DNA of 31,432 nucleotides. Origin: Anaerolineaceae bacterium. Lineage in GTDB: Bacteria; Chloroflexota; Anaerolineae; Anaerolineales; Villigracilaceae. Below, piece after piece: positions 5,242 to 20,400 of this stretch. Position numbers and translations under genes: made by a program. The stretch spans positions 1-31,432 of the forward strand of contig VFJR01000071.1 in NCBI GenBank assembly GCA_009885945.1. Direction: 5' to 3'. The notes beneath the pieces are model-generated. The model was not told the DNA's origin. It saw only the letters and a program-made list of their open reading frames with translations, and ran no database searches. Numbering within the stretch: position 1 is the first letter of the stretch; each line of letters opens with the position of its first letter.

Positions 5242-5270
5242 TTGACGCCCGCCCTTCTTACATGTATAAT
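5242..5270 (+). promoter_or_regulatory. Near-consensus sigma70-type promoter: TTGACG - 17 nt - TATAAT, about 45 nt upstream of the DUF4388 gene
   Basis: Read directly: TTGACG (5242-5247), 17-nt spacer, TATAAT (5265-5270), with TG immediately upstream of the -10. Sits in the AT-rich divergent intergenic region 5181-5316. Confidence 0.45.
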
Positions 5271-5316: not shown

Positions 5317-6123
5317 ATGGCCCTTCGTGGCAACTTAAGAGATTTTACAATTACCCAATTGCTTAACTTGATCAATTTGGCTGGTAAAACAGGCACATTG
5401 ATTTTAGAAGGTCCCGCTGAGCAGGCGCATGTTTCTTTTCGCGAGGGCAAATTAGCATATGCGCGTATTGGTCAGGACGATGGCAGTTTGGCAAGTATTT
5501 TACATAAAGCCAACAAGTTGAATGCAAATCAATACCGCGCCATCGCAGACCGAGCTGGTCAAATGACTGATAAGGAACTTGGTCTCTTGTTAATTAATGC
5601 GGGCTATGTTTCACAAGATGATATTCTTCTCAATCTACAATCCCATTTTTCAGATGTAATTAGACGTTTATTTACCTGGGTTGAGGGTTTTTTCCGTTTT
5701 GAAGCAGAGATCATGCCTCCTGAAGATCGCATCAATGTGCGGCTGGATCTCGAAAATATTATTATTGAAGGCTCTCGTGAATTGCGTGAGCTTGAACAAC
5801 TTAAAGATGAAATTCCCAGCCTGGATATGGCATTGAAATTCACAGACCGCCCGATGAAGCACGTCAATTTGAGCGTAGAAGAGTGGCGCGTTGTTTCATT
5901 TATAAACCCAAAGAACACAATGAAGCAGATTGCGCAGACTAATAAAATGTCTGAATTGGAAGTTCGGCGCATTGTCTACGGTCTTTTGCAAGCTGGTTTG
6001 GTTGAGATGGTAAGGCCTGAAGGGGTAGTGGTTCAACAAAATCCCAAGACCTATCCAACTCAGGATAAAGAAGAACAAAAAACGCTGATCAATAAGTTGA
6101 TCGGGCGCATTCGCACCATGTAA
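5317..6123 (+). CDS. DUF4388-type protein (N-terminal DUF4388/PATAN-like domain plus C-terminal wHTH-like domain), probable partner/regulator of the downstream GTPase
   Basis: N-terminus 'LRGNLRDFTITQLLNLINLAGKTGTLIL' is the characteristic DUF4388 opening. C-terminal 'NLSVEEWRVVSFINPKNTMKQIAQTNKMSELEVRRIVYGLLQAGLVEMV' resembles the family's second domain. SD AGAGG 7 nt upstream. Family assignment is from memory, not a search. Confidence 0.5.
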   Translation: MALRGNLRDFTITQLLNLINLAGKTGTLILEGPAEQAHVSFREGKLAYARIGQDDGSLASILHKANKLNANQYRAIADRAGQMTDKELGLLLINAGYVSQDDILLNLQSHFSDVIRRLFTWVEGFFRFEAEIMPPEDRINVRLDLENIIIEGSRELRELEQLKDEIPSLDMALKFTDRPMKHVNLSVEEWRVVSFINPKNTMKQIAQTNKMSELEVRRIVYGLLQAGLVEMVRPEGVVVQQNPKTYPTQDKEEQKTLINKLIGRIRTM

Positions 6124-6147
6124 ATTTTTTGGAAGGAATAATTTATT

Positions 6148-6687
6148 ATGCAAACAGTAAAAATGGTGGTAACAGGTCCGTTCAGTGCCGGCAAGACTCA
6201 ATTTATTCAGTCTGTCAGTGAAATTGATGTAGTTGCAACAGAGCGTAAAATTTCATCCGAAGAAGAACGTGCAGTTAAGTCGGCGACCACTGTCGCAATG
6301 GACTTTGGGCGTATCACAGTGGATGAAGATCTTGTTCTTTATTTATTTGGTACTCCTGGGCAAAAAAGATTTGATTTTATGTGGGAAATTCTTTCTGAGG
6401 GCATGTTAGGGTTTATTGTGATGGTTGATAGTACCCGCCCTGAGACTTTCCGCGAAGCCCGTTCAATTTTAGAGACTTTCCGCGCATATGCTCCCACTCC
6501 TTTTGTGGTTGCCGCTAATAAGCAGGATATGCCAGAAGCTTGGGATATGGAAGATATTCGCCATGCTTTACGGCTTGATGCTGAAACAAAGCTGTTACCC
6601 TGCGTAGCAACCAATCGTGATACCGTCAAGACAGTTCTTTTGGAACTGCTTTTCAGCATCATGCAGGAAATGGAGTCCGGAAAATAG
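6148..6687 (+). CDS. Small Ras-like GTPase of the MglA/CvnD ('conservon' ATP/GTP-binding protein, COG2229) family
   Basis: P-loop 'GPFSAGKT'. 'TTVAMDFGRITVDEDLVLYLFGTPGQKRFDFMWEILSEGMLGFIVMVDSTR' closely matches the CvnD/MglA signature (TTVAMDFGR ... LYLFGTPGQ.RF.FMW). NKxD motif 'AANKQD'. SD GGAAGGAA upstream. Confidence 0.75.
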   Translation: MQTVKMVVTGPFSAGKTQFIQSVSEIDVVATERKISSEEERAVKSATTVAMDFGRITVDEDLVLYLFGTPGQKRFDFMWEILSEGMLGFIVMVDSTRPETFREARSILETFRAYAPTPFVVAANKQDMPEAWDMEDIRHALRLDAETKLLPCVATNRDTVKTVLLELLFSIMQEMESGK

Positions 6688-6709
6688 GCTATCCGGTGAA
6701 ACAGTTTTC

Positions 6710-7507
6710 GTGTCATCAATTACAACAGATCAGGGAATAGTTCATTATGAGGTATACGGGCGCGGGCGTCCCGTAATTCTTTTGCATGGTTGGCTTGGGT
6801 CGTGGGGGTTATGGCAGGAGACGATGGCATATTTGGGTGCTTTTTACCGCACATACGCCATGGATTTTTGTGGGTTTGGTGAATCTGGAAAGAAACGTGA
6901 AACCTATGCAGTACAGGATTTTGTCGGCTTAGTTAACCAATTCATGGAGCAATTGGGTATTGTGCATGCGCCATTGGTGGGGCATAGCATGGGTGGCACT
7001 GTTAGTTTGTCGGTGGCAATAAAACATCCCGAGCGGGTTAGCAAAGTTGTGGTGGTTGGATCGCCCATTGTTGGTTCGTCGCTTGCGCCATTGTTGAAGG
7101 TCTCAGGGTATCGGCCAGTTGCTTTTTTACTCTTTAATATGATGGGACCCTTTCGCGCCTTTATGAAATATTATTATTCACGCGCTATTTGCAGTGACCC
7201 TCGTTTTCCTGCAATGATGGACCGCGACCTTTCTCGTACGACAGTTGAATCGTTTCTGCTCTCTATTTCTTCACTTCGCCGTACCGATTTGCGCCCAATG
7301 TTGGATCAAATAAAAGTTCCTGCGCTCGGAATGTATGGTCATAAAGATAAAATTGTGCACCCGTTGCAATGGCAGCCTATGCAACAGGGAATTGTTGGGT
7401 CTAGAATTGAGCATTTCCCAAATGCTGGTCATTTTCCTATGCTGGAAGAACCTGCTGAATTTAGCAAAAGATTAAAAGCGTTTTTAGACGAGCCATTGCC
7501 AGCATAA
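6710..7507 (+). CDS. Alpha/beta-fold hydrolase with an intact catalytic triad (paralog of 18804..19592)
   Basis: Oxyanion 'LLHGW', nucleophile elbow 'GHSMGG' (Ser codon 6986-6988), acid 'GHKDKIVHP', His 'NAGHFPMLEEP'. Start set at in-frame GTG 6710 (VSSITTDQGIVHYEV...) by analogy to the paralog's N-terminus 'MSAILIDGSIVHYEA'. The ORF-track start at 6617 overlaps the GTPase gene and is unlikely. Confidence 0.65.
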   Translation: MSSITTDQGIVHYEVYGRGRPVILLHGWLGSWGLWQETMAYLGAFYRTYAMDFCGFGESGKKRETYAVQDFVGLVNQFMEQLGIVHAPLVGHSMGGTVSLSVAIKHPERVSKVVVVGSPIVGSSLAPLLKVSGYRPVAFLLFNMMGPFRAFMKYYYSRAICSDPRFPAMMDRDLSRTTVESFLLSISSLRRTDLRPMLDQIKVPALGMYGHKDKIVHPLQWQPMQQGIVGSRIEHFPNAGHFPMLEEPAEFSKRLKAFLDEPLPA

Positions 7508-7539
7508 TAGGGTACTGTACCTCGTATATAAGCACTCAA

Positions 7540-7572
7540 CGCGATGGATAAGAGAATATCCTCGCGTTTTTC
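7540..7572 (+). terminator. Rho-independent terminator after the hydrolase gene: CGCGA(T)GGATA-agagaa-TATCCTCGCG followed by TTTTT
   Basis: Inverted repeat plus T-tract read directly, about 30 nt after the 7507 stop. Confidence 0.55.
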
Positions 7573-7665
7573 ATCTAAATACCACTACAATTCTTTTGTA
7601 AGACCTGTAAACTCACCAAGCAGAAACCGTATTTAATCCTTGCAATCATTTATAATTGAAACAAT

Positions 7666-8937
7666 ATGCTGAAAATTATTTTACACGCTCCAAACAATGT
7701 GCATCCGTTTTGTGAGCCGGCCCGCGATTTACGCATTCAAAACTCTCCCCTTTGGCTTCATCAGCGTAATGTACTCACTCCTTATGTGACTCGTGAAGTG
7801 GAAGTGAAGCCAGGGGTACCTTTTAATCCCACCCGTGAACCATCCATTGTATATCGTGACAATTTATTCTTTGATCAGGAATACATTGATGCCTTTATCA
7901 GTGAGGCAAAAAGAAAAAATCGTGCTGTTCGTGCGGCTTTTTCTGCAGATGACCCAGCTTTTCGGGAACATGCGCTTCCTCTTTCATCATCCTATACACC
8001 TGCTGGTAGTTTATATCTTGCTGATTTATGGTACTACCCAAATGGCCCTGTAGCAGATGTAGAACCTCTGGTGATAGATTTGCAATCCCGTGAAATTGGG
8101 TATTATCATGTGCCGACCTATATGGCTGAGCAAACAGGGGATCTGTTATTTCAGGTACCTCTTCGTTCTTTGATTGCAATTGACTCTTGGGTACATATCT
8201 TCGTTGCTGATATGATTTTTAGTCAATTTGGTCGAGGAGCGCGCTTTGAGAAGCAGCTGCATGAAGACCTGGCTTTTAAGTTAAAAATTATTGGTACTGC
8301 TATTTATGAGGGCAGGCAGGTCTTGGATTGTTCAGAATTAGTACAGATGGGCAAAAATTGCGTGATTGATCCTAGCGCTGTTATCCATGGACCTACGATC
8401 ATTGGAGACAATGTCAATATCGGCGCTGGAACTGTGATTGAGAACTCGATCATTGGCAATAATGTGAATATTTCACAGGGTTGCCAAATTATGCTTTCAG
8501 TTGTGGGGGATGGGGCTTTCCTACCATTTCGTGCCGCTTTGTTTATGACCACAGTGATGGACCATAGCATGGTGGCGCAAAATACATGTTTGCAGATGTG
8601 CGTGATTGGACGTAATACATTTATTGGCGCTGGTACAACCTTCACAGATTACAATATTATCCCCGCACCGCTTCGCGCACTTTCGGGAGATGGCTCTTTG
8701 CGCCCGTCCAATCGTCCGGTATTGGGCGGCTGCGTTGGTCATAATTGCCGCTTAGGCTCTGGCATGATTGTTTATCCGGCGCGCACCATTGAATCAGATG
8801 TAGTGCTGGCTGCATCGCAGGAACGACGTGTGATTAGCAAGGATATTCGTTTTGAAGATAGTGATCATCATCGCATGAAGCTTTCTCATTTGCATCAGAC
8901 CCCTTATCATAAAAAGAAAGAAGAAGAGTCCTGGTAA
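7666..8937 (+). CDS. Left-handed beta-helix (hexapeptide-repeat) protein with an N-terminal domain of uncertain identity, possibly a degenerate sugar-nucleotidyltransferase-like fold lacking the Gly-rich loop
   Basis: Hexapeptide repeats 'IGDNVNIGAGTVIENSIIGNNVNISQGCQIM' and 'IGRNTFIGAGTTF'. N-terminus 'LKIILHAPNNVHPFCEP...PLWLHQRNVL' only loosely resembles the NTP-transferase 'KAIILAGGxGTRL...PLL' and has no GxGTRL. No SD before the ATG; a TATAAT sits 9 nt upstream, so the transcript may be leaderless. Confidence 0.45.
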   Translation: MLKIILHAPNNVHPFCEPARDLRIQNSPLWLHQRNVLTPYVTREVEVKPGVPFNPTREPSIVYRDNLFFDQEYIDAFISEAKRKNRAVRAAFSADDPAFREHALPLSSSYTPAGSLYLADLWYYPNGPVADVEPLVIDLQSREIGYYHVPTYMAEQTGDLLFQVPLRSLIAIDSWVHIFVADMIFSQFGRGARFEKQLHEDLAFKLKIIGTAIYEGRQVLDCSELVQMGKNCVIDPSAVIHGPTIIGDNVNIGAGTVIENSIIGNNVNISQGCQIMLSVVGDGAFLPFRAALFMTTVMDHSMVAQNTCLQMCVIGRNTFIGAGTTFTDYNIIPAPLRALSGDGSLRPSNRPVLGGCVGHNCRLGSGMIVYPARTIESDVVLAASQERRVISKDIRFEDSDHHRMKLSHLHQTPYHKKKEEESW

Positions 8938-10023
8938 ATGGACAGTTTTGCGTTCATCATACATCCAGTTGACCCCAAGCGCGATGTAAGCAGGAAGTTT
9001 CCATTTTTGGGGCGTACGTTGAGTGAAAAACAGATTGATTTTTTCTCAACTTTTTTCCCACCCGTATATATTTCTGAGATTAACGGCATTACGTCGAAGG
9101 CGACTGGAAAAGAGATTAAAGGTTGGTTTATTGCATGTCCGTTTACGCCGCGCCGTATGATGGAGTTGCGCGAGCAGAGGGTATATCGTAAAATTATCCA
9201 AACTGGGCGCGTCGCTGAGAAATTAGGAGCAAACATCCTTGGCTTGGGAGCCTTCACCTCGGTTGTGGGGGATTCTGGCGTGACGATTGCAAATGCGCTG
9301 GATGTGCCTGTGACCACAGGCGATTCTTATACTGTAGCTCTTGCTGTGCAGGCAATTCGTGATGCGGCAAAGGTGATGGATATTAAGATGCAGGATGCCA
9401 CAGTAGCAGTCGTTGGCGCTACAGGTACAATTGGGCGCGTCTGTGCTGAGCTGTTGGCTGGCGAGGCGGCACGGGTTTTGCTTGTGGCCCGGGATGAGAA
9501 AAAGCTTGAAGTTTTACGTGACAGGCTCAAGCTCCATGCTCGAAGCGAATTGCAAATCAGCACGAGCATGGATGTATTATCTGAGGCTAAATTGATCCTC
9601 ACTGTGACGAGTGCAGTGCATGACGTTATCAAGCCTGAGCATTTATTGCCTGGAAGTGTTGTTTGTGATGTGGCTCGTCCTCGTGATGTTTCTGCAATGG
9701 TAGCGGCTGTGAGAGATGATATATTAGTGATTGATGGTGGCATGGTAGACGTACCAGGTCCCGTTGATTTCCACTTTAATTTTGGTTTTCCAGAAGGCAA
9801 GGCGTATGCCTGTATGGCTGAGACCATGGCGCTGGCTTTGGAAGGCAGATTTGAAGATTACACTGTGGGTAAGGATATTACACTTGCTCGTGTTCAGGAA
9901 ATTACGACCATTGCTGAAAAACATGGCTTTCGTTTGAGCGGATTTCGCTCATTTGAAAAAGAAGTAACGGAAGCACAAATTGAAACTGTGAAAAGGAATG
10001 CCCGCAAAATGCGGCGTGCATAA
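8938..10023 (+). CDS. Predicted NAD(P)-binding dehydrogenase (COG5322-like 'predicted amino-acid dehydrogenase' / shikimate-DH-like Rossmann fold)
   Basis: Rossmann motif 'VAVVGATGTIGRVCAELLA'. N-terminal 'FAFIIHPVDPKRD...FIACPFTPRRMME' is typical of COG5322 members as I recall them. The start ATG directly abuts the upstream stop (TAAATG), indicating translational coupling. Confidence 0.45.
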   Translation: MDSFAFIIHPVDPKRDVSRKFPFLGRTLSEKQIDFFSTFFPPVYISEINGITSKATGKEIKGWFIACPFTPRRMMELREQRVYRKIIQTGRVAEKLGANILGLGAFTSVVGDSGVTIANALDVPVTTGDSYTVALAVQAIRDAAKVMDIKMQDATVAVVGATGTIGRVCAELLAGEAARVLLVARDEKKLEVLRDRLKLHARSELQISTSMDVLSEAKLILTVTSAVHDVIKPEHLLPGSVVCDVARPRDVSAMVAAVRDDILVIDGGMVDVPGPVDFHFNFGFPEGKAYACMAETMALALEGRFEDYTVGKDITLARVQEITTIAEKHGFRLSGFRSFEKEVTEAQIETVKRNARKMRRA

Positions 10024-10034
10024 GGAGGCTCGTC

Positions 10035-10940
10035 ATGGCAAAAGCCCGATTGTTAGTTGTGGAAGACGATATTGATATTGCGAATATGCTTAAGATCTAC
10101 TTCTCTGGATTAGAATTTGATGTAGATGTAGCAAATCGCGGGATGGATGCTTTGGAAAAGACAAAGCATGTGATTCCTCATTTAATGGTGTTGGATATTA
10201 TGCTGCCTGATATTGACGGCTATGAAGTATGCCGTCAGTTGCGTATGAATACCCGCACTAGCCATATTCCTGTGATTTTTCTTACCCAAAAGGATGAACG
10301 CAGTGATAAGTTACAGGGTTTGGAATTAGGCGCTGATGACTATATTACAAAACCCTTTGATATTGAGGAATTAAAATTGCGCGTGACGGGTGCTATTCGC
10401 CGCGCTGAGCGTGAGAGTCTTACTGACCCGCGTTCTGGTTTACCTGCTGGGCGTTTGATTGAAGAGCAGCTGCGCCGCATTATTCGTGAGACAAATTGGG
10501 CAATGTTAGATTTGCGCTTAAATTACTTTGATGCGTTCAAAGATGTTTATGGCTTTGTCGCTGGTGATGATGTTTTACGTTTTGCTACTATGATATTAAG
10601 TGAAGTGGTAGATGAACTAGGCACGAACAAGGATTTTATTGGGCACCCAGGCGGTGATAATTTTGTAATCATTAGTACTCCTGAAGCTGCAATTACAATT
10701 CGCCAACGCCTTAAGGATCGCTTTGCGAATGAAGTGCAAACGCACTATAATTTTATCGACCGACAACAGGGATTTATCCAGGCTCCAAGAGCTGATGGGG
10801 GGGTAGATAAAGTTCCCTTTATGACCCTTTCAATTGGATTGGTATCACCGACTCAGCATTCTTTTGCTGATATTCGCGAAATTACTGAGTTAGCGGCAGA
10901 AGCCAGACGGCAGGATACACCTGCGGCTTCTATTGCCTGA
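10035..10940 (+). CDS. Response regulator: REC receiver plus GGDEF-like domain with degenerate active site GGDNF (predicted catalytically inactive diguanylate cyclase)
   Basis: REC: 'LLVVEDD', phospho-acceptor 'MVLDIMLP', 'YITKPF'. GGDEF-like: 'RSGLPAGRL', 'YGFVAGDDVLR', 'IGHPGGDNFVIIS' (GGDNF codons at 10650-10664). The I-site RxxD is replaced by TNKD. Strong SD TAAGGAGG 6 nt upstream. Confidence 0.8.
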   Translation: MAKARLLVVEDDIDIANMLKIYFSGLEFDVDVANRGMDALEKTKHVIPHLMVLDIMLPDIDGYEVCRQLRMNTRTSHIPVIFLTQKDERSDKLQGLELGADDYITKPFDIEELKLRVTGAIRRAERESLTDPRSGLPAGRLIEEQLRRIIRETNWAMLDLRLNYFDAFKDVYGFVAGDDVLRFATMILSEVVDELGTNKDFIGHPGGDNFVIISTPEAAITIRQRLKDRFANEVQTHYNFIDRQQGFIQAPRADGGVDKVPFMTLSIGLVSPTQHSFADIREITELAAEARRQDTPAASIA

Positions 10941-10957
10941 GAGGTAGTCTTCTTATC

Positions 10958-13900
10958 ATGTTAGCCGGGGTAGGCCTCGGAATTTGGCTTATTATCGCTG
11001 GACTGGCGCTTGTCTTGCTAGTCTGGTTAGTATTATGGTTGCTACCTGGGGAAAAAACTGCGAAAGTATCTGAAGCTCCAAGTTATTTGCCAGATACAGC
11101 AAATTCAATTGATGCGGTTTTGATCGTTGAACCAGGCGGGCGTGTTAATTATATGAATTCGCTCGCTCGTCACTGGTTCGATATGGCTGAAAATGATGAG
11201 CCGGATATTGAGCGTTTAACGCGCCGGGTACGTCCTGCGGATCAGTTTTTAGATGTTTGTGTTATGCCTGGTCAAAAACGTGTGACGATAGGCGGGAGGT
11301 TAATGGAAGTTACTTCTTATGAAGTACCCGGTACTTCTCCTTTAATTCTCGTAACTTTGCGTGCTATGGATTTGGGATCTGCATTAATTGGCGGGACATC
11401 GGATTCTTCTACATCTATTCTAAAGGTAGTAAAAGATTTTAGTCAGGCTGTTTCTTTGAGCCTTAGCTTGATGCATACCCTTCAAGCCGTCCTGGAAAAT
11501 ATTAGCCGTTTAACTTCGTCTGATATTCTTGAGCTTAAGTTGTGGGATACCCAGTCTGATTCGTTAATTCCTTATCGTTTTGACGATCCTAATTCACCAG
11601 CACGCGTTATTGTACGTGCTTCAGTAACTCAATTCGGAGAATTTACAAGCCAGTTACTTACTACTCGTCAGCCGGTTTTTATTGCCAGCACCGAAGCGCG
11701 CTCAAACACTGCTCCGCGCAATGCAGAAATTAAATCCATTCATTCTTATTTAGGAATCCCATTAATTGTTGGCGATAAATTGGTTGGAACATTGGAAGCA
11801 GGGCAGACGAGCGGTGGTTCATTTGGTCAGCATGACCTTGACCTTTTGTTATTGGTTTCAGGACAAGCAGCATCTGCTCTTCGAAATGCCGGACGATATG
11901 AAGAAGAGGAAAAACGCTCACTAGAATTATCCGGTTTGGCAAACCTTACTCAGGCTTTTAGTTCTATTCAAGACGTGCGGGACCTTTTTGCTAGTCTTAT
12001 CGAGAGTATTTCTCTGCTCTTCAACACAGATATTATTGGTTTCCTCCTCTTTGACGAGGACAAGAGTACTTTAGAAGGCCAAATCCCTTTTCGAGGCATT
12101 CCTGCTCATATTGTAGAAATTTTCCGCTCATCCATTCCGTCTGGCAGCAGTGCAGAGCAGGTTTTAAACAGCCGCAATTCTATCTATACCTTGGATGCAT
12201 CCAAAGACGAATCATGGCGTTTGCTTGGGTTTACCAACATTGCCATTGCTGCTAGTTTGCGGGATTGCGCCTTGATTCCTTTGGTATCTTCGAGCCGTGT
12301 TGTAGGTTATTTTCTTCTCGCACATCATCGTGGTGGTACTTCTGCTTTTACAAAAGACGAATCTCGTTTAATTGATATTGTTGCCGATCAAGTTGCGGCA
12401 ATTGTTGATAATGCCTTGCTTGTACAACATGCTCGCATTAGAAGTCAGCGATCTGATTCCTTGCGGCGTATTGCTAGTCTTTCAGCTTCTTCCGCTACAT
12501 TGAATGAAGTTCTGACATTTTCTATTCAAGAACTTGCCAACCTTTTTCAGGCAGAAGCTGGCGCTGTTTTTCTACTAAACAGTAAATCTGGCGAACTAAC
12601 GCTGGAGAAAAATTCAGCTTTTGGCGTTGATGAAAATACTAAGGAAGCTTTCAAAGTAATTTATATAGATCAGCCTCAATACCGCCAGACCGTTTCTGGC
12701 AGTCAAAGATCGTTTGTTTCCGGTAGGTTAAGCACAGATCGACGTGTTAGCCCTCCGTACCAGCAGTTAGCCGGCGTTTTGCATATGGAATCGGTGCTTT
12801 TGGTGCCTCTTGTTGCGCGTGATAAAAGTATTGGCGAATTAATGTTGGGAAATCGCCGCTCCGATTATTTCACAACCTACGATCTGCAAATTGTATCTAC
12901 TGCCGCTGGTTTGCTTGCGACAGCTATAGAAAATTCAAACTTATTGAAGCAAACAGATGATTCTTTGCGTCAAAAGGTTGATCAATTATCGTCTGCATCT
13001 GTTACTGCAAGGGAAATCAGCGCCTCGCTTGAATATGATCATCTGTTACAGATTATTTATGAAGAAGCTTTAAAGATTTCACATGCTACCTGCGGATCAG
13101 TCATCTTTTTTAAATTTAATGAGAATGATGAAATTCCTCATATAACACATTCCATAGGCTGTTTTAACTCCAAAGTTGTTACTCCTTTCGAACTTGCAGC
13201 AATCAAGCGCGGTTCTGCAATTGAAATGCCAGACTTCTTTAGCCAAATAGATTATTCCGCCCCCCACGAAAGTGTTCACTCTGCATTACTGGTTCCAATT
13301 GTTCACCATGGGAAAACGACTGGTTTAATACAGTTACATAGTAGCCAGGCTGCTTTTTTCAAATCGATGATTTCTGAATCTGTTCAATCGCTTGCTTTGC
13401 AAAGCGGCATCGCTCTCGAAAATGCGCGTCAATATAATGATGAGCGTTTGCACGTAGAAGTCTTGCGGCGCCGTGCCGAAACATTGGTTGACTTGTCTAA
13501 TGTAAGTTATTCTCTAAACCTTGAAGAACCACTTGAAGGCTCGCTGCTCTCTATTGCTCACGGCATTAGTAAAGCTACTTCTTTTCAGGTTGTCTTGATT
13601 AGTATATTTGAATCTGAAACAGGAATGTTGCGTCGTGTTACAGGTGTTGGCATTCCTCAGGATATTTTAAACGAATTACTTTCAAGAAAACAGCCCTATA
13701 GCAGTGTTCAATCCCTGCTACGCCCCGAATTTAAGATTGGGCGCACCTACTACATCCCAGCAGATCAAACACCAATAGTGCCTTCGGATGTGCACATGGT
13801 AACTTTACAATTAAGTAGTGATCAAAAAACATCGAATTCATGGTACTCAGAAGATTTTCTTCTTATTCCTCTTGAAGATGGACAAGGAAACCCCATTGGC

Positions 13901-16900
13901 TTAATCAGCCTTGATGATCCATCCAATGGTTTACGCCCGGATATGGCGACCATTTCTTCGCTCGAAGCGTTTGCAGCGCAAGCAACATTAGTGATCACTA
14001 ATGTTGCTCGAGCAAGCGATTTAAAAAATAAGGTAGATGCATTAACCGCAGGCCTGCAGCGTCAACAAAAACTATTAAGCGTTACGCAAAATGATGTTCC
14101 GATTTTGTTACGCAAGGATTTAGAACAAACTATTTCGGTACATAGCCTTGAGAGGCGTGCTCAGCGCGTCCGCGCAGGATTGCTTATTACGGAAAGTGTC
14201 AGCCGTCAACTGGATGCAAGTTCAGCGCTGATGGCGCTTGCCCGCGAAGTTCTTACCCAGTTAAACATGTCCGCGTCTATCGTAGCTGAAAGTGGGGCAG
14301 AGGGACCACGCCTTCTTCACATCCTAGGCAGTGTGCCCAAATCCACAAACGTAGACGCATTGTTTGGTCAACGCAATCCATTACGGAGTTGTTTGCAATC
14401 TGGTGAGCCTTTATTAGTAGCAACGCTTGAAGAAAATGAAGAATGGCGTGATGCGCCATTGTTAACATCTCTGCGCGCAAAAGCTTTTATTTGCCTTCCC
14501 GTCATGGTGGAAAATGTTCCAGTTGCTGCCATGCTTGCCGTCAGCCCTGAACCGCTCACTGCATTTACAGATGAAGACCGTCAAGTTTATTACCAAATTT
14601 CTCGTCAAACATCTGTTATTCTGCAGAATATTTCCCTGCTTAATGAAACTCGCAGACGTTTGCAAGAAGTGAATCTTCTGTTGGAGTTCAGTCAACATCT
14701 TAGCGGGTTAAGCCCGGAAGAAATTTTACGTTCTCTGCTTGACAGTGCCCGCCGTGTATTACATTCTGCTCACGCTGGGAATGTTCTTTTATGGGATTTT
14801 CAATCTGATCTTCTTGTTTCACGCGCTGTTTCTGGATATGCAGATAATGAAAGTTTGACTCGAATTACGTACCGTTCTGGTGAAGCTTTGCCAGGTTCTG
14901 TATATGCATCTCGCAAACCACGCAAAGTGGATGAAATTAATTTTTCCAGAGATTACAATATTTCTTCAGAGAATTTACTTCTCTATCGTCAGGCAACCGG
15001 CGGGCGCATTCCCGTATCCAGTTTGCTCGTTCCTATTATTTCTGGCGATCGAAATCTTGGTTTATTAGTTCTGGATAATTTTAATGCTACAGGCGCATTT
15101 AAGGTAGAAGATGAAACTTTACTTCTTTCTTTGACACAGCAGGTTGCGCTATCGCTCGAAAACGTTCGATTAGTACTGGCAACCCAAGAACGCGCAGGTC
15201 AATTGCAGGCATTAAACGATGTTGCCGCCTCACTTACTTCAAATTTACGTAATGATCAATTGGTTAAATCATTGCTAGATCAGCTTGCTCCGGTAATTCC
15301 ATTTGATACCGCTACATTATTGGTTCGCGAAAAAGACCGCCTTAAGGTAATGGATGTGCGCGGGTTTGAAGATAATGATCAACGCCTAGGCCTCAGTTTG
15401 GCAGTGGCGGATAGCGCTATTTTTAACGAAATGAGTCGCAAGGGACAGCCTGTTGTAGTGAGCGATGTGCGTGAGGACCCACGTTTTCCGCGGGTAGATG
15501 CTCCTCGTCTGTCATGGCTTGGCATTCCTATGATTTCAAAAGGCGAATTAGTAGGTGTGATTACGCTGGAAAAGGCGCAGGTACGTTTCTATAATAAAGA
15601 ACAGGCGCAAGTCGCTGCAACATTTGCTAGTCAGGCTGCTGTAGCGTTGGAAAATGCCACTCTTTATGAAGACAGTTTAAGTCGCGCAGCAGAACTTGAC
15701 CAACGTTCCCAGCGTTTAATGGTATTGAATCGTTTCTCGGCTTCTCTTGGCGGTTTGTTGGATGTTGATCAGATACTACAATTAACTGCTCAGGAATTAT
15801 TACAGGCTTTGACAAATGTCAAACGTATTTCAATAATTACGTTTGAAGGCGAAAAAGCAATTTGGAAATTGGCATCTCCTCGCACTAATATGAAACTGCC
15901 GCGACCCCTTCCTCATGCCCCAATTTTTGATCGTTTACGTAGTTCTATGGGACTTTTCACCTCAGATAATATTGCTAATGAACCTGATCTAATGCCTTTG
16001 AAAGATATGCTGGGCCAAGACAATGCTTCTCTAATGATTGTTCCTCTCGGGGTTGCATCCAAGTTAACCGGTTTGCTATTTGCTTACACACCAGGCCAAT
16101 ATCGCTTCACTTCCACTGAAGTGGACCTAGCCCGTACTATGGTCACGCAAGCTTCGATCACGTTAGAAAATGCCCGTTTATACGAATCAAGTGTTCGTAC
16201 GGCAGAACGATTCGCTGCATTAAACGAAACTAGCTCGCAGATCAGTGCAAACCTTAATGCTGAGGAAATTTATCAAGCTGTGCATAAAGCGGCAAAACGT
16301 GTTATGCCAGTAGAATCATTTGTGATCAGTTTGTTGGATGAAGATACAAATGAAATTATCGGTGCATATTTAATAGATCATGATCAGCGTTCTCCAGCTA
16401 CGCGTGTTCCTAGATCGCAAGGCCTTACCGGTAAAATTCTTGAGAGTGGCCAACCTTTGTTAATAAGCGGAGATGAAGTAAAAGCAGCTGGTGGAATTCA
16501 ATATGGGGATGCTCCCAAATCGCCATTATCTATTATTGCTGTGCCAATGACCTTGGGAGGAAAGACCTTGGGGATGCTTTCTGCACAGAGCTATGAACCA
16601 AATATATATACTGATGATGATGTGCAAATTCTGGGTACTCTTGCAAATCAGACTATTGTTGCACTTCAAAACAGCAAACTTTTAATAGAAACTCAAACAC
16701 TAGCCGCAGAGCAAGAACGCCGTGTGGTTGAACGTACTGCACAATTACAACATGAGCAACAAAATACAGAAACATTGTTGCGCATTCTCACAGAAGTATC
16801 TTCAAGTCTTGATCTTGACCGTGCTTTGAATCGCACGCTTTCCTTACTTAATGATGCCATCGGCGCTGAACAGGGCACAATTATGCTTCTGCACGCCGAA

Positions 16901-18397
16901 GACAATCTTTTGCATTATCGTGCTGGCTATGGATACCTTTCCGAACGAGCAGATGGAGTTAATCGCACCCTTACATTAAAGGTGGGGGAAGGCTTAGCTG
17001 GATGGGTTGTACAAAACCGTGAAGCAACATTAGTCGATGATTTACATGAAGATAGTCGCTGGACACGATCTCCTAGCTCGTCACAAGATCACCGCAGCGC
17101 TTTAATTACCCCCATGTTGGTAAGTGAAGACGTTATTGGCGTTTTAATGGTTTTTCACCGTGAAGTCAGTTTCTTTAGCCCTGAAATGCTCAATTTGGTA
17201 AAGGCAATTGCAAGTCAGGTAGCTGTAGCAATAAATAATGCGCATTTATATGAATTAATTCGTGATCAAGCAGAACGTCTTGGTGTAATGCTCCGCAAGG
17301 AACAAGAGGAAGCCAGCCGTTCTCAAGCTATTCTTGAAGCTGTTGCCGATGGCGTTTTGGTAACAGGCGCAGATAACCGAATTACATTTGTTAACTACTC
17401 CATTGAACGTATCCTTGGGTTAAAAGTTGAACAAATCCTTGGGCAATCATTGGATGTGTTTGGCGGATTATTCGGCAAGACAGCTAGTGATTGGATGGAA
17501 ACGATTCGCCTTTGGTCAGAAGCGCCCGCATCCTATCAAACGGGTGATTCCTATGCGGAACAGATCGAACTTGAAAATGGGCATATAGCGTTGGTCCATC
17601 TGGCGCCTGTTATTTTACAAAACGATTTCCTTGGCACTGTTTCCATCTTTCGTGATATTACTCATGAAGTTGAGGTGGATCGTCTGAAGTCCGAATTTGT
17701 AGCAACGGTTAGCCATGAATTACGTACCCCTATGACAGCCATTAAGGGCTATGTCGAAATCTTGCTAATGGGTGCGGCTGGTGCTATTGGCGAAAACCAA
17801 GCACACTTCTTATCTATAGTAAAGAATAATATCGAACGACTTAATTCTTTAGTGGATGACTTGCTTGACATATCTCGCATCGAATCAGGTCGTGTCACTC
17901 TTACGCCGCAACCATTAGAAATGCGCGAAGTGGCAGAGGATGTAATTGCCGAGCTTTTGCGCCGTTCTCAAGAAGAGAAAAAACCAATGGCAGTATCGCT
18001 CGATGCTGAAAAGAATCTCCCGCCAGTTGTTGGTGATGTTGGACGGGTACGTCAAATACTCGGAAACCTGGTGGACAACGCCTATCATTACACCCCAGAG
18101 AATGGCACTATCCATGTTAATATTTACACAACAAACGGAAATGGCGAAAAACAGCTGCGCGTGGATGTGCAAGACAATGGTGTTGGCATTGCAGTAGAAG
18201 ACCAAGAGCGCATCTTCGATCGCTTTTATCGTGGTGAACACCCTCTTGTATTGGCTACCCCTGGAACAGGATTGGGACTCTCCATTGTCCGCCAACTTGT
18301 GGAAATGCATAATGGAAAACTTTGGATGAATAGCTCAGGCGTAGCTGGTGAAGGAAGTATCTTCTCCTTCACATTGCCAGTCTATAAAAATCAATGA
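10958..18397 (+). CDS. Giant (2479 aa) membrane-anchored sensor histidine kinase: N-terminal TM, PAS, about 11 tandem GAF domains, PAS, HisKA, HATPase_c
   Basis: TM 'GVGLGIWLIIAGLALVLLVWLVLWLL'. At least 11 repeated GAF C-terminal blocks (e.g. AALENATLYEDS, ITLENARLYESS, VAINNAHLYELI, ALQNSKLLIETQ, SLENVRLVLATQ). H-box 'EFVATVSHELRTPMTAIKGY'. N-box 'GNLVDNAYHYTPENG'. G1 'DNGVGIAVED'. G2 'GTGLGLSIVRQLVEMHNGKLW'. Single uninterrupted ORF. Confidence 0.85.
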   Translation: MLAGVGLGIWLIIAGLALVLLVWLVLWLLPGEKTAKVSEAPSYLPDTANSIDAVLIVEPGGRVNYMNSLARHWFDMAENDEPDIERLTRRVRPADQFLDVCVMPGQKRVTIGGRLMEVTSYEVPGTSPLILVTLRAMDLGSALIGGTSDSSTSILKVVKDFSQAVSLSLSLMHTLQAVLENISRLTSSDILELKLWDTQSDSLIPYRFDDPNSPARVIVRASVTQFGEFTSQLLTTRQPVFIASTEARSNTAPRNAEIKSIHSYLGIPLIVGDKLVGTLEAGQTSGGSFGQHDLDLLLLVSGQAASALRNAGRYEEEEKRSLELSGLANLTQAFSSIQDVRDLFASLIESISLLFNTDIIGFLLFDEDKSTLEGQIPFRGIPAHIVEIFRSSIPSGSSAEQVLNSRNSIYTLDASKDESWRLLGFTNIAIAASLRDCALIPLVSSSRVVGYFLLAHHRGGTSAFTKDESRLIDIVADQVAAIVDNALLVQHARIRSQRSDSLRRIASLSASSATLNEVLTFSIQELANLFQAEAGAVFLLNSKSGELTLEKNSAFGVDENTKEAFKVIYIDQPQYRQTVSGSQRSFVSGRLSTDRRVSPPYQQLAGVLHMESVLLVPLVARDKSIGELMLGNRRSDYFTTYDLQIVSTAAGLLATAIENSNLLKQTDDSLRQKVDQLSSASVTAREISASLEYDHLLQIIYEEALKISHATCGSVIFFKFNENDEIPHITHSIGCFNSKVVTPFELAAIKRGSAIEMPDFFSQIDYSAPHESVHSALLVPIVHHGKTTGLIQLHSSQAAFFKSMISESVQSLALQSGIALENARQYNDERLHVEVLRRRAETLVDLSNVSYSLNLEEPLEGSLLSIAHGISKATSFQVVLISIFESETGMLRRVTGVGIPQDILNELLSRKQPYSSVQSLLRPEFKIGRTYYIPADQTPIVPSDVHMVTLQLSSDQKTSNSWYSEDFLLIPLEDGQGNPIGLISLDDPSNGLRPDMATISSLEAFAAQATLVITNVARASDLKNKVDALTAGLQRQQKLLSVTQNDVPILLRKDLEQTISVHSLERRAQRVRAGLLITESVSRQLDASSALMALAREVLTQLNMSASIVAESGAEGPRLLHILGSVPKSTNVDALFGQRNPLRSCLQSGEPLLVATLEENEEWRDAPLLTSLRAKAFICLPVMVENVPVAAMLAVSPEPLTAFTDEDRQVYYQISRQTSVILQNISLLNETRRRLQEVNLLLEFSQHLSGLSPEEILRSLLDSARRVLHSAHAGNVLLWDFQSDLLVSRAVSGYADNESLTRITYRSGEALPGSVYASRKPRKVDEINFSRDYNISSENLLLYRQATGGRIPVSSLLVPIISGDRNLGLLVLDNFNATGAFKVEDETLLLSLTQQVALSLENVRLVLATQERAGQLQALNDVAASLTSNLRNDQLVKSLLDQLAPVIPFDTATLLVREKDRLKVMDVRGFEDNDQRLGLSLAVADSAIFNEMSRKGQPVVVSDVREDPRFPRVDAPRLSWLGIPMISKGELVGVITLEKAQVRFYNKEQAQVAATFASQAAVALENATLYEDSLSRAAELDQRSQRLMVLNRFSASLGGLLDVDQILQLTAQELLQALTNVKRISIITFEGEKAIWKLASPRTNMKLPRPLPHAPIFDRLRSSMGLFTSDNIANEPDLMPLKDMLGQDNASLMIVPLGVASKLTGLLFAYTPGQYRFTSTEVDLARTMVTQASITLENARLYESSVRTAERFAALNETSSQISANLNAEEIYQAVHKAAKRVMPVESFVISLLDEDTNEIIGAYLIDHDQRSPATRVPRSQGLTGKILESGQPLLISGDEVKAAGGIQYGDAPKSPLSIIAVPMTLGGKTLGMLSAQSYEPNIYTDDDVQILGTLANQTIVALQNSKLLIETQTLAAEQERRVVERTAQLQHEQQNTETLLRILTEVSSSLDLDRALNRTLSLLNDAIGAEQGTIMLLHAEDNLLHYRAGYGYLSERADGVNRTLTLKVGEGLAGWVVQNREATLVDDLHEDSRWTRSPSSSQDHRSALITPMLVSEDVIGVLMVFHREVSFFSPEMLNLVKAIASQVAVAINNAHLYELIRDQAERLGVMLRKEQEEASRSQAILEAVADGVLVTGADNRITFVNYSIERILGLKVEQILGQSLDVFGGLFGKTASDWMETIRLWSEAPASYQTGDSYAEQIELENGHIALVHLAPVILQNDFLGTVSIFRDITHEVEVDRLKSEFVATVSHELRTPMTAIKGYVEILLMGAAGAIGENQAHFLSIVKNNIERLNSLVDDLLDISRIESGRVTLTPQPLEMREVAEDVIAELLRRSQEEKKPMAVSLDAEKNLPPVVGDVGRVRQILGNLVDNAYHYTPENGTIHVNIYTTNGNGEKQLRVDVQDNGVGIAVEDQERIFDRFYRGEHPLVLATPGTGLGLSIVRQLVEMHNGKLWMNSSGVAGEGSIFSFTLPVYKNQ

Positions 18398-18405
18398 GGA
18401 ATTGA

Positions 18406-18780
18406 ATGGCAAAAATTTTAATAGCTGAAGATGAACCAGACATTCGTGACCTAGTGGCATTTACACTTCGATTTGCAGGACATGAAGTAGTCGCAACCTC
18501 CAATGGGGAGGATGCGTTACACTCAGCTCCCAATGTAAAACCAGATTTAATTCTTATGGATGTGCGTATGCCAAAGATGACTGGATACGAGGCTTGCCGA
18601 GCCATGAAAGCAGACCCTCAGCTAAGAGACATTCCCGTTGTATTTCTCTCTGCTAAAGGGCAAGAGAGCGAAATTCAAATAGGCATGGAAGCAGGCGCCG
18701 AAGAATATTTATTAAAACCATTTGCCCCCGATCAATTGACCGAGCGCATAAGATCCATCCTTGCTAAATACGGAAAATAA
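18406..18780 (+). CDS. Stand-alone CheY-like response-regulator receiver
   Basis: 'ILIAEDEPDIRDL', phospho-acceptor 'LILMDVRMPKMTGYE', 'YLLKPF'. 8 nt after the HK stop; SD TGAGGA. Confidence 0.85.
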   Translation: MAKILIAEDEPDIRDLVAFTLRFAGHEVVATSNGEDALHSAPNVKPDLILMDVRMPKMTGYEACRAMKADPQLRDIPVVFLSAKGQESEIQIGMEAGAEEYLLKPFAPDQLTERIRSILAKYGK

Positions 18781-18803
18781 GTACAGTTGGATAAATTGAA
18801 ACA

Positions 18804-19592
18804 ATGAGTGCCATTTTAATTGACGGATCTATCGTTCACTACGAAGCATTGGGTCGCGGCCGTCCCATTGTCTTTCTAAACGGCTGGGTTGGCTCATGGC
18901 GCTACTGGGTATCTGCCATGCAGGTTGCATCCACTTCATTTCGCGCATATGCAATAGATTTATTTGGATACGGTGACACAGCCCATGAAACCATTCGCTA
19001 CTCTCTCGACAAACAAGCAAGCCTCATTAATCGATTTATGGAAGAAATGGGTATCGGGAAAATAGCAATTGTTGGTCATGGGCTTGGCGCATTGGTTGGG
19101 TTTTCATTTATTCAACAATGGCCAAAAAGTGTAGATCGTATGATGGCAATCAATGCCCCCTTGGATTTTGTATCAGTAAGCGCGCGCTTGAAGACTGCCC
19201 CCATGACAGAATTAATAGAATGGCTTTCGAGTAAATCCCCAGAAGCAATCAGCGCCCTAGCAGACGCTTCAAAAGCAGACCTCGCGGCTGTTGCCGCTTC
19301 GATGGGCAGTTTGCAAGCTGACAACCTCTTTACTCATATTCGCACAGCGGGTATTCCCTGCCTGTTGGTACATGGACAAAATGATCCCGCCATAGTAACT
19401 CCCACCCAAGAGAGCATTGATGGAATGCCATCGCACCTGCACCAAATTACATTAGATTCTATAGGTCATTTTCCAATGATAGACAATCCATCGCAGTTTA
19501 ACCGCCTTATGACAGATTTCCTTGCTTTAGAAACTGGACTCAGCCCCAAAGAACTGCAACTCAAAGAAGAATGGAAACGCAGGGTGCGCTAA
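18804..19592 (+). CDS. Alpha/beta-hydrolase-fold protein, paralog of 6710..7507, lacking the catalytic Ser (GHGLG instead of GHSMG) and the oxyanion His (FLNGW instead of LLHGW): predicted pseudo-hydrolase
   Basis: Direct alignment with the 6710 paralog (same length to the nucleophile elbow, both at codon 93). The Gly codon 19080-19082 replaces Ser. His 'SIGHFPMIDNP' and Asp 'GQNDPAIV' are retained. Confidence 0.7.
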   Translation: MSAILIDGSIVHYEALGRGRPIVFLNGWVGSWRYWVSAMQVASTSFRAYAIDLFGYGDTAHETIRYSLDKQASLINRFMEEMGIGKIAIVGHGLGALVGFSFIQQWPKSVDRMMAINAPLDFVSVSARLKTAPMTELIEWLSSKSPEAISALADASKADLAAVAASMGSLQADNLFTHIRTAGIPCLLVHGQNDPAIVTPTQESIDGMPSHLHQITLDSIGHFPMIDNPSQFNRLMTDFLALETGLSPKELQLKEEWKRRVR

Positions 19593-19607
19593 TATAACGC
19601 GACATCT

Positions 19608-19708
19608 AATTGAACGGGGAGCCTGCCCAAGAGGCTGAGAGGAGCGTATACAACGCTCGACCCGCACTACCTGATCTGGTTAATACCAGCGGAGGGATTT
19701 TCTCGTTT
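19608..19708 (+). ncRNA. TPP (thiamine pyrophosphate, THI-box) riboswitch aptamer
   Basis: ACGGGGAGCCTGCCCAAGAGGCTGAGAGGAGCG...CGCTCGACCCGCACTACCTGATCTGGTTAATACCAGCGGAGGGA. This matches the conserved CUGAGA and ACCUGAUCUGGnUAAUnCCAGCGnAGGGA blocks and the P2/P3 helices of RF00059-type elements (from memory of the consensus). Confidence 0.85.
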
Positions 19709-19711
19709 TCT

Positions 19712-19741
19712 AAAACATCCTCTGCTTGAGGATGTTTTTTT
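19712..19741 (+). terminator. Riboswitch expression-platform intrinsic terminator: AAAACATCCTC-tgctt-GAGGATGTTTT plus TTTTTT
   Basis: 11-bp perfect stem, 5-nt loop, U-tract, read directly. About 30 nt upstream of the thiN ATG. Implies transcription-attenuation (OFF) control. Confidence 0.65.
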
Positions 19742-19770: not shown

Positions 19771-20400
19771 ATGCATCGTATACTGATCTTTGCCAATGGG
19801 GAACTGCCCAGCCTCGAAAAAGCCCGTACGCTTATCCGTGCAGGGGACTATATTATCGCGGTGGATGGGGGCATACGTCATATCCTTGCTTTGAAGCTTA
19901 TCCCCGCCGTTATTATTGGCGACCTCGACTCATTGCCTTCAGACTTTCAGCTTTCAACCTTCAGCGGAGAACTGATCCGATACCCTCGAGACAAAAATGA
20001 AACTGACCTTGAGCTTGCTATTCAACATACTCTTACATTAAACCCTGAGAAAATAATAATTATTGCTGCGCTTGGAGGTCGCCTCGATCAAACTCTGGCT
20101 AATATTTCTTTACTTGCAGACCAGCAACTCTCAGGTTTTGACATCCGATTAAACGATGGGGTGGAGGAAATTTTCATTTGCCGAGCTCAAGCCCAAGTTA
20201 TAGGAATAAGCGGCGATATTATTTCGTTAATTCCCTGGGGCAACCCAGTGACAGGCATCCAGACTACGAATCTAAAATGGGCGCTCAATAAAGAAACGCT
20301 GTTCCCTGAAAAAACACGCGGTATTAGCAATGAAATGACCGCAGATGAAGCGACTATTTCAATTGAATCAGGCTTGCTGGTAATTGTTCGCCGCTATTAA
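19771..20400 (+). CDS. thiN: Thiamine pyrophosphokinase (thiamine diphosphokinase, TPK)
   Basis: 'ILIFANGELPS', 'VIIGDLDSL' and 'IIAALGGRLDQTLANI' match the TPK catalytic-domain motifs (GDxDS, GGRxDH/Q). C-terminal thiamin-binding-like domain. Directly downstream of the TPP riboswitch. Confidence 0.75.
   Translation: MHRILIFANGELPSLEKARTLIRAGDYIIAVDGGIRHILALKLIPAVIIGDLDSLPSDFQLSTFSGELIRYPRDKNETDLELAIQHTLTLNPEKIIIIAALGGRLDQTLANISLLADQQLSGFDIRLNDGVEEIFICRAQAQVIGISGDIISLIPWGNPVTGIQTTNLKWALNKETLFPEKTRGISNEMTADEATISIESGLLVIVRRY

Follow-up and report, generated by a model that had tools for sequence, protein, structure and literature searches.

In RsbQ-PAS modules, an alpha/beta hydrolase is paired with a PAS-phosphatase, PAS-kinase or PAS-cyclase protein (PMC3183031). 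The described set consists of RsbQ/RsbP from B. subtilis plus 45 homologous pairs; the RsbQ gene lies immediately upstream of that of its partner, whose most N-terminal domain is an RsbP-type PAS, and the Ser96-Asp219-His247 triad of RsbQ is conserved and required (PMC3183031). RsbQ-PAS is the closest known arrangement to that of ABH2, a hydrolase-fold protein encoded in a 31,432-nucleotide stretch of DNA from an Anaerolineaceae bacterium of the phylum Chloroflexota (contig VFJR01000071.1 of assembly GCA_009885945.1), the whole of which is referred to here as the window. Like ABH2, RsbQ is a small stand-alone protein encoded with a cytoplasmic sensor, a histidine kinase or GGDEF protein in some of the pairs, with which it works, and it is a structural neighbour of ABH2 (template modelling (TM) score 0.75). 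Yet the two proteins are only about 15% identical, RsbQ has no counterpart of the C-terminal tail motif of ABH2, and the ABH2 gene lies downstream of its kinase, with a receiver (REC) gene between them and with a GAF domain at the start of the kinase. An identification of ABH2 as RsbQ was rejected, as neither the gene layout nor the conserved triad is found.

Non-catalytic proteins of the alpha/beta-hydrolase fold are well known as eukaryotic receptors and adaptors. GID1, EDS1/PAD4/SAG101, NDRG and the neuroligins resemble ABH2 in that the fold is kept under selection while catalysis is dispensable, and they serve as signalling receptors or adaptors. ABH2 differs from them as a single-domain bacterial protein that is tied to a two-component system and whose defining trait, a linear motif at the C-terminus, they lack. 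No specific homology of ABH2 to these eukaryotic families was found, the Pfam family Ndr giving only faint matches in some relatives. A search of the literature on PATAN/MglA/Chloroflexi, on Anaerolineae gene clusters and on bacterial hydrolase-fold pseudoenzymes returned no description of the ABH2 family or its cluster, and no bacterial non-catalytic hydrolase-fold family tied to a two-component system. What is new here is a bacterial, class-wide, tail-bearing hydrolase-fold protein with an apparently dispensable nucleophile that is tied to such a system.

On balance, ABH2 is probably a non-catalytic alpha/beta-hydrolase-fold subunit of a kinase-to-receiver pathway, with a flexible tail that docks to a partner. 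The properties computed here are the fold, the unconstrained nucleophile position, the relaxed acid (within Anaerolineales), purifying selection, the tail and the invariant gene order. The features of the window are listed in Table 1.

Table 1. Positions and properties of the features discussed in the window
Feature	Positions	Strand	Properties	Basis
Sigma-70-like site	5242-5270	+	TTGACG-17-TATAAT, 11/12; best such site of the 15-kb region; just upstream of PATAN gene	
PATAN (DUF4388/PatA_N) protein	5317..6123	+	first cluster gene	Pfam DUF4388, 86.7 bits; syntenic
Small GTPase	6148..6687	+	Ras/MglA-like	Pfam ATP_bind_1, Ras, Arf; syntenic with ABH1
ABH1	6710..7507	+	265 amino acids; canonical paralogue; intact Ser93-Asp213-His241 triad; without tail	
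LbH protein	7666..8937	+	left-handed beta-helix (LbH), hexapeptide-repeat	Pfam Hexapep, LbH_EIF2B; syntenic
Reductase-like protein	8938..10023	+	acyl-ACP-reductase/PigE-N-like, NAD(P)-binding	Pfam Shikimate_DH; syntenic
REC-GGDNF protein	10035..10940	+	REC plus degenerate GGDEF (GGDNF, residues 206-210, nucleotides 10650-10664)	Pfam; sequence
Histidine kinase	10958..18397	+	cytoplasmic; 2479 amino acids; ten GAF, PAS, HisKA, HATPase	Pfam
REC protein	18406..18780	+	stand-alone receiver, 124 amino acids; immediately 5′ of ABH2	Pfam Response_reg, 104.9 bits
ABH2	18804..19592	+	262 amino acids; alpha/beta-hydrolase fold; unconstrained nucleophile position; conserved C-terminal tail	
ABH2 codon 26	18879..18881	+	AAC, Asn replacing His of HG motif; unique to this genome	
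ABH2 codon 93	19080..19082	+	GGG, Gly; nucleophile elbow	sequence; DSSP of both models
ABH2 codon 194	19383..19385	+	GAT, Asp; acid of former triad	alignment to 4io0 acid loop by hidden Markov model (HMM)
ABH2 codon 222	19467..19469	+	CAT, His; triad histidine in invariant HFPM motif	
ABH2 tail	19563..19589	+	KEEWKRRVR, residues 254-262; family motif K-x-x-W-x-R-R-x-R; absent from ABH1	
Thiamin pyrophosphate (TPP) riboswitch	19605-19714	+		Rfam RF00059, 69 bits against gathering score of 54.3
Terminator-like hairpin and U-run	19712-19738	+	after TPP riboswitch, upstream of thiamin pyrophosphokinase gene (19771-20400)	

Catalytic positions

Both hydrolase-fold reading frames of the window lie on the plus strand where a first-pass annotation had placed them, and the protein strings that it quoted occur in their translations. 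Its view of ABH1 and ABH2 as colinear paralogues is borne out by a BLASTP alignment that runs from end to end with 29% identity over 263 columns (E 2e-41), a likeness far above chance level. The curated Pfam cut-offs of Abhydrolase_1 and Abhydrolase_6 are passed by ABH1 and ABH2 alike, placing ABH2 in the superfamily; these generic hydrolase-fold families are its only Pfam assignments, and neither ABH2 nor the distant members of its family score above the cut-off of any NCBIfam model. The AlphaFold (AF2) model of ABH2 is confident (predicted local distance difference test score (pLDDT) 91.4; predicted TM score 0.91). An unusually conserved N-terminal block, VHYE..GRGRP....HGW.GSW..W, is common to both proteins, as is the GHFPM histidine loop, and the lid is longer in ABH1 than in ABH2.

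The elbow reads GHSMGG in ABH1 and GHGLGA in ABH2, and residue 93 sits between strand 87-92 and helix 94-105 in both AlphaFold models. The first-pass annotation was right to place the nucleophile at codon 93 in both proteins, to find Ser93, Asp213 and His241 retained in ABH1, and to find Gly93 and Asn26 in ABH2 with Asp194 and His222 kept. In an HMM alignment, Asp194 and His222 fall on the acid and histidine loops of the epoxide hydrolase 4io0. The alternative that the annotation had itself raised, a different Ser, Cys or Asp at the elbow of ABH2, was checked, and no such residue can be placed there.

Catalytic positions were surveyed in 434 full-length tail-bearing members of the ABH2 family, and the family counts given here exclude the window protein and so cover 433 members. 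Among the 119 close Anaerolineales homologues, the elbow column holds Asp in 62, Gly in 40, Asn in 16 and Ser in 1, Asp being the most frequent residue in the close relatives of ABH2. The corresponding composition is G59/S19/A13/D6/T2 in representatives at 50% identity, S54/G20/D17/A11 in a long form of the protein and A43/S43/G20/D6/T1 in a distant short form. In species-level coding sequences from 81 Anaerolineales species, the entropy of this column is 1.41 bits and its flanks G91, H92, L94 and G95 are invariant. Parsimony requires at least 8 elbow changes among these species, between the closest of which Asp swaps freely with Gly and Asn, and at least 45 on a 171-member tree whose ABH1-like outgroup is all Ser. 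Parsimony also puts Gly at the root of the family, a placement that is unreliable given so many changes. Ser is indeed absent from the window protein, as first annotated, but what the family displays is a free column and not a fixed change from Ser to Gly. A sequencing error at this codon had been thought unlikely, and Gly93 recurs in 31 of the 81 species, written with four different Gly codons.

The remaining catalytic positions are less free. The acid is Asp in 405/433 members; within the Anaerolineales it has undergone at least 11 parsimony changes among the 81 species, being replaced by N, T, S or G. The triad histidine is present in 428/433 members and in 81/81 species. The histidine of the HG motif is present in 432/433, the window protein with its Asn26 being the lone exception (1/434), and codon 26 is CAC or CAT in all 80 other species, one base away from the AAC of the window. 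The loss of the oxyanion histidine was thus correctly read in the window but is not a trait of the family. The adjoining oxyanion residue, Gly27, varies to S, T, D or N. ABH1 orthologues from the same cluster, taken from 80 metagenomic loci and from further loci of distant orders, served as a control: Ser is found in 83/83, Asp in 82/82, His in 82/82 and the HG motif in 85/85.

The ratio of nonsynonymous to synonymous substitution rates of ABH2 has a median of 0.088 (350 pairs), which points to strong purifying selection. Because the elbow drifts under such selection, with ABH1 as an internal control, the nucleophile appears to be dispensable for the selected function of ABH2, and within the Anaerolineales the acid appears to be so too. 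The signature of an active serine hydrolase, a conserved Ser, Cys or Asp in Sm-X-Nu-X-Sm together with His and an acid, is not found: the histidine is conserved and the acid is relaxed within the Anaerolineales. The fold is kept, the key residue is missing or unconstrained and selection is purifying, so that on comparative grounds ABH2 would be a pseudoenzyme in the sense of PMC5106787. One operon-like cluster, followed through hundreds of species, sets an immutable triad (ABH1) beside a freely drifting nucleophile (ABH2) and amounts to a natural experiment. Non-catalytic members of large enzyme superfamilies are unsurprising in themselves; the comparative evidence for ABH2 is unusually clean.

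Distribution and age of the family

Protein searches return thousands of ABH2 relatives. The closest 120 are 67-78% identical to ABH2 and nearly all 262-263 amino acids long, and their sources, where named, are all Anaerolineales or Chloroflexota. A scan with one genome per species found relatives of 65-78% identity in 432 genomes, all from Anaerolineae, and the family spans several orders of this class. An exhaustive search of representatives followed the K-x-x-W-x-R-R-x-R motif down to relatives of about 32% identity. The long form (330-530 amino acids) is found in the Aggregatilineales, the cultured Aggregatilinea lenta among them. It carries an insertion of 70-130 amino acids where the lid begins, behind residues 119-126 (loci L084 10001-11155, L085 10001-11218 and L086 10001-11176), and retains the core motifs, the tail and the place after the REC gene. 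The distant short forms are found in Ardenticatenaceae, Promineifilaceae and other Anaerolineae.

The tail-bearing family is defined here by four traits: the K-x-x-W-x-R-R-x-R motif, an elbow of the form GH-x-LGA, the sequence GSWRYW after the HG motif, and a gene placed directly after a stand-alone REC gene behind a multi-GAF kinase. The window protein shows all four, and Asn26 is its one deviation. The tail-bearing proteins form a single clade in a neighbour-joining tree, apart from the tail-less GHSMGG relatives of ABH1. Since they also span several orders, the duplication that gave rise to ABH1 and ABH2 is older than the split of these orders. The first-pass annotation had proposed a duplication, and the two are true paralogues, but the event is ancient and not local.

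Many ABH2 homologues carry the name "pimeloyl-ACP methyl ester carboxylesterase", assigned automatically by the Joint Genome Institute (JGI). A BioH identity was rejected, as ABH2 reaches 39.9 bits with TIGR01738, whose cut-off is 206.95, and the Ser is missing; this widespread name is unsupported for ABH2 and is corrected here. The nearest sequence family with an intact triad is the group of ABH1 itself, which comprises BioH/PcaD/MenH-like Abhydrolase_1 proteins with a canonical GHSMGG elbow.

A few ABH2-like domains that have a Gly elbow, lack the tail and share at most 54% identity with ABH2 occur in fusions with TIR_2, at either the N- or the C-terminus, or with CHAT (P0123, P0143, P0216, P0222, P0235 and P0221). 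Such fusions are rare among ABH2 relatives, and in them the TIR or CHAT domain takes the place of the tail. The only context retrieved for a TIR fusion (locus L170 1028-2476) contains no kinase or receiver gene and lies near a gene for an AAA_16/TPR/guanylate-cyclase protein. Judged by this architecture, the hydrolase-fold domain of the fusions appears to act as a modular non-catalytic unit. The TIR-fused relatives recall plant TIR signalling via lipase-like proteins of the EDS1 family, as noted in 10.1101/572826.

The C-terminal tail

The hallmark of the ABH2 family, which the first-pass annotation missed, is the invariant C-terminal tail. All close relatives end in SPRELQ[LM]KEEWKRRVR; K254, E256, W257, R259, R260 and R262 are invariant in the 81 species, and K254, W257 and R259/R260 are conserved across orders. 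Over the last dozen residues of the otherwise confident AlphaFold model, pLDDT falls from 58 to 44 and no secondary structure is predicted, so the tail looks like a short linear motif for docking and would not belong to the fold. Across all loci fetched, ABH2 orthologues alone carry the motif at a C-terminus.

The C-terminus of CheZ and the N-terminus of FliM are precedents for a short conserved terminal peptide that, on a flexible linker, docks on the single-domain receiver CheY. In RssB, a receiver is paired with an enzyme fold (PP2C) that is catalytically dead and serves as an adaptor. These are functional analogies only: the folds differ, PP2C as against alpha/beta hydrolase, and ABH2 and REC are separate polypeptides.

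Apart from the tail, the regions best conserved across orders are the N-terminal hairpin, the HG loop and helix A (HYE.lGRG.P....HgW.GSWRYW...MQ), the flanks of the elbow, the HFPM histidine loop and helix F. R33, Y34 and Q40 set ABH2 apart from ABH1, as does the tail. The lid is the least conserved region, with a mean top-residue frequency of 0.39. This variability, together with the large insertions that the lid has received in one order, disfavours a conserved ligand pocket. Within the lid, K157 and D159 are conserved across orders and no Tyr is conserved.

The Arg and Trp residues of the tail were also considered as a binder of cyclic di-GMP (c-di-GMP) produced by the neighbouring GGDEF protein. 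This was not adopted, as the degenerate GGDNF motif of that protein makes local synthesis doubtful.

Conserved gene order

The order reductase-like gene, REC-GGDEF gene, multi-GAF histidine kinase gene, REC gene and ABH2 is found in 80/80 Anaerolineales species loci with enough flanking sequence. Loci centred on ABH1 contain the segment from PATAN through GTPase, ABH1, LbH, reductase-like and REC-GGDEF to the kinase. The whole order recurs in distant orders (Aggregatilineales, Ardenticatenaceae and others), where ABH2 is 33-51% identical and the genes downstream of it differ. The first-pass annotation had asked whether the Ser-less type forms a clade that co-occurs with multi-GAF kinases; the clade is found with a multi-GAF kinase and a receiver in 80/80 Anaerolineales loci and in 6/6 loci from other orders. 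The predicted two-component pathway that includes ABH2 is in these terms conserved throughout the class Anaerolineae.

The same annotation assigned ABH1 and ABH2 to two separate modules, one with a GTPase and the other with a kinase and receiver. This division does not stand, since both copies belong to one conserved ten-gene cluster with the order PATAN, small GTPase, ABH1, [V4R], LbH, reductase-like, REC-GGDNF, multi-GAF kinase, REC and ABH2. ABH1 and ABH2 share one cluster in every order examined and are about 11 kb apart in the window. ABH2 was correctly described as the last gene of its unit, since a TPP riboswitch begins 13 nucleotides past its stop codon; ABH1 follows the GTPase gene but ends no independent module.

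The receiver encoded next to ABH2 has its phospho-acceptor residues intact, D9, E10, D52, S82 and K104 being conserved in 85-88 of 88 orthologues. The spacer between the REC and ABH2 genes is typically 6 nucleotides across loci, and in L088 the two overlap by 4 nucleotides. In the window they lie in different frames, so in-frame read-through from REC into ABH2 is impossible.

Proposed role and alternatives

A non-catalytic sensor or adaptor, as first annotated, is the best reading of ABH2, since the protein shows no constraint as a serine hydrolase despite strong purifying selection. In the proposed pathway, the giant multi-GAF/PAS histidine kinase would phosphorylate the stand-alone receiver whose gene directly precedes ABH2, and ABH2, the product of the tightly spaced next gene, would act as the partner or output adaptor of that receiver. 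The flexible, basic and aromatic C-terminal peptide K-x-x-W-x-R-R-x-R would be the docking element, and the globular hydrolase-fold body would provide a scaffold or binding surface. We infer that the tail binds REC or REC~P; which way the signal runs and what it acts on downstream are inferred as well, and the target may be the PATAN/GTPase/ABH1 half of the cluster.

A more ambitious version is tentative and, in our estimate, rather doubtful. It holds that ABH2 represents an undescribed class of bacterial pseudoenzyme adaptor in which a disordered docking peptide would couple a phosphorylated receiver to the PATAN/small-GTPase/active-hydrolase half, and whose sensor-like domain has been recruited into TIR/CHAT fusions. 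Anaerolineae are abundant filamentous bacteria in sediments, soils and sludge. If true, the adaptor reading would provide, in multicellular Anaerolineae, a route by which the sensing of environmental or metabolic conditions acts on polarity or on the behaviour of filaments. The invariant tail offers a testable handle on an uncharacterised signalling cluster that is apparently core to this class.

Several observations weigh against the role proposed for ABH2. Which partner the tail binds is a guess, for which the adjacent single-domain receiver would be the most economical candidate, and no REC-ABH2 fusion protein occurs among 508 relatives. Nor do these 508 include a Rosetta-stone fusion of ABH2 with a kinase, the extended forms being TIR_2/CHAT fusions or lid insertions. 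Gene order conserved within a single bacterial class can partly reflect shared ancestry and not function. Roughly one family member in four, for the most part from outside the Anaerolineales, has Ser at the elbow and could be an active hydrolase. The conservation of His222, His26 and Asp194 is far above the need of a purely structural scaffold. This makes a pocket-based function possible, either binding or nucleophile-independent chemistry, and it keeps alive both of the alternatives that invoke a pocket.

The first of these is a non-hydrolysing small-molecule receptor, similar to GID1 or to D14/KAI2 without hydrolysis, that reports to the kinase-receiver pair, which is the sensor option of the first-pass annotation; its ligand would be a hydrophobic signal made or processed by the ABH1, LbH, reductase-like and V4R proteins of the cluster. 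The retained pocket-lining residues of the former active site, the conserved lid residues K157 and D159, the presence of an active paralogue and an acyl-ACP-reductase-like gene in the same cluster, and the fusion of Gly-elbow relatives to TIR or CHAT effector domains, as would suit a sensor module, all speak for a receptor. The rest of the lid, however, is hypervariable and takes large insertions, the elbow residue shifts in size and charge (G, A, S, D, N) in ways that would alter a snug pocket, and the window and some relatives have no V4R. We regard a receptor as unlikely, though worth keeping in view.

ABH2 could instead still be an enzyme that dispenses with a covalent nucleophile, with the His222/Asp194 dyad and the HG oxyanion hole as general base and polarising site. 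Nucleophile-free chemistry on this fold has precedents in the cofactor-independent dioxygenases HOD and QDO and in the proton-abstracting MenH. Against such a dyad, the acid has been replaced at least 11 times within the Anaerolineales while constraint elsewhere is intact, the oxyanion Gly27 is variable, the window protein lacks His26, and the lid that would shape a substrate pocket is poorly conserved and tolerates insertions of 70-130 amino acids. The matches to HOD and QDO are moreover no better than those to dozens of ordinary esterases. This explanation, too, we hold to be improbable.

Pseudoenzymes can regulate their catalytic relatives, a concept reviewed in PMC5106787, and ABH2 might in this way be a dead paralogue that regulates the active ABH1, perhaps by forming a heterodimer through the common N-terminal block. 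That block is unusually conserved, and the two genes always occur in one cluster in every order examined; but the block may just mirror shared ancestry, and ABH2 adjoins REC and lies far from ABH1 in the cluster. The probability of such a relationship seems low.

Members with an Asp elbow (GHDLGA) might be Asp-nucleophile enzymes of the epoxide-hydrolase or haloalkane-dehalogenase type, of which the Gly of the window would be a degenerate form. Among solved structures, epoxide hydrolases and dehalogenases give the best sequence matches (E 4e-15 at best, their h-D-w-G falling on h-G-l-G), the GHDLGA of many ABH2 orthologues resembles their HDWG, and Asp is the commonest elbow residue in close relatives. 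An epoxide hydrolase was rejected because the proline of HGXP is absent (HGWV, or NGWV in the window), Asp occurs in only part of the family, where it interchanges freely with Gly and Asn, and no lid Tyr is conserved. A haloalkane dehalogenase was rejected because residue 94 is an invariant Leu where dehalogenases have Trp after the nucleophile, and the NCBIfam dehalogenase models score far below their cut-offs (NF002938, 67.5 against 241 bits; NF002043, 39.5 against 265; NF002873, 22.5 against 466). Asp-nucleophile chemistry is effectively excluded for ABH2. So are sequencing error and gene decay, the least credible of the explanations: the protein is known from a single contig and its Asn26 is unique among 434 and lies one nucleotide from His, and Asn26 alone could be an error without effect on the main conclusion, but the frame is intact and full-length, purifying selection is strong and Gly93 recurs across species in four codons.

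Other genes of the cluster

Every gene between 5317 and 19592 lies on the plus strand, with gaps of 24, 22, 158, 0, 11, 17, 8 and 23 nucleotides. The gap of 158 bp after ABH1 separates co-directional genes whose synteny is conserved across orders. In the distant orders and in many Anaerolineales, close relatives included, a gene for a protein of about 210 amino acids lies between ABH1 and LbH (L093 8855-9481; L087 566-1225; L088 1746-2384; L089 2196-2900); the product is weakly V4R-like in L087-L089. This gene is missing from the window, where 7508-7665 is only a gap, and from some relatives.

Of the sigma-70-like sites in the region, the strongest precedes the PATAN gene, and the only convincing plus-strand terminator lies after ABH2. 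A single long transcription unit spanning 5317 to 19592 would fit these positions, though the evidence is weak, since promoter-like sites as a whole are no commoner than in shuffled sequence.

The reductase-like protein matches NCBIfam NF053554 (225 bits; N-terminal part of prodigiosin PigE) and TIGR04058 (132 bits; cyanobacterial acyl-ACP reductase), both below cut-off. Its occurrence with the abutting LbH gene, ABH1 and V4R hints at acyl-thioester or small-lipid chemistry within a signalling cluster. The GGDNF motif of the REC-GGDNF protein is kept in 95/98 orthologues, and the window protein has no RxxD I-site directly upstream of it. This protein could be regarded as a second conserved "degenerate enzyme" of the cluster.

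The histidine kinase of the window begins with GAF domains and has its PAS domain at residues 2121-2238. In other orders of Anaerolineae, the kinase ranges from 1018 to 3145 amino acids (L084, L085 and L087-L089). The GAF array grows and shrinks while the PAS-HisKA-CA end and the adjoining genes stay constant.

Outside the cluster, the window encodes a ThyX (Thy1) homologue of 369 amino acids at 45-1154 on the plus strand. It matches in two stretches and is longer than expected for a single ThyX domain.

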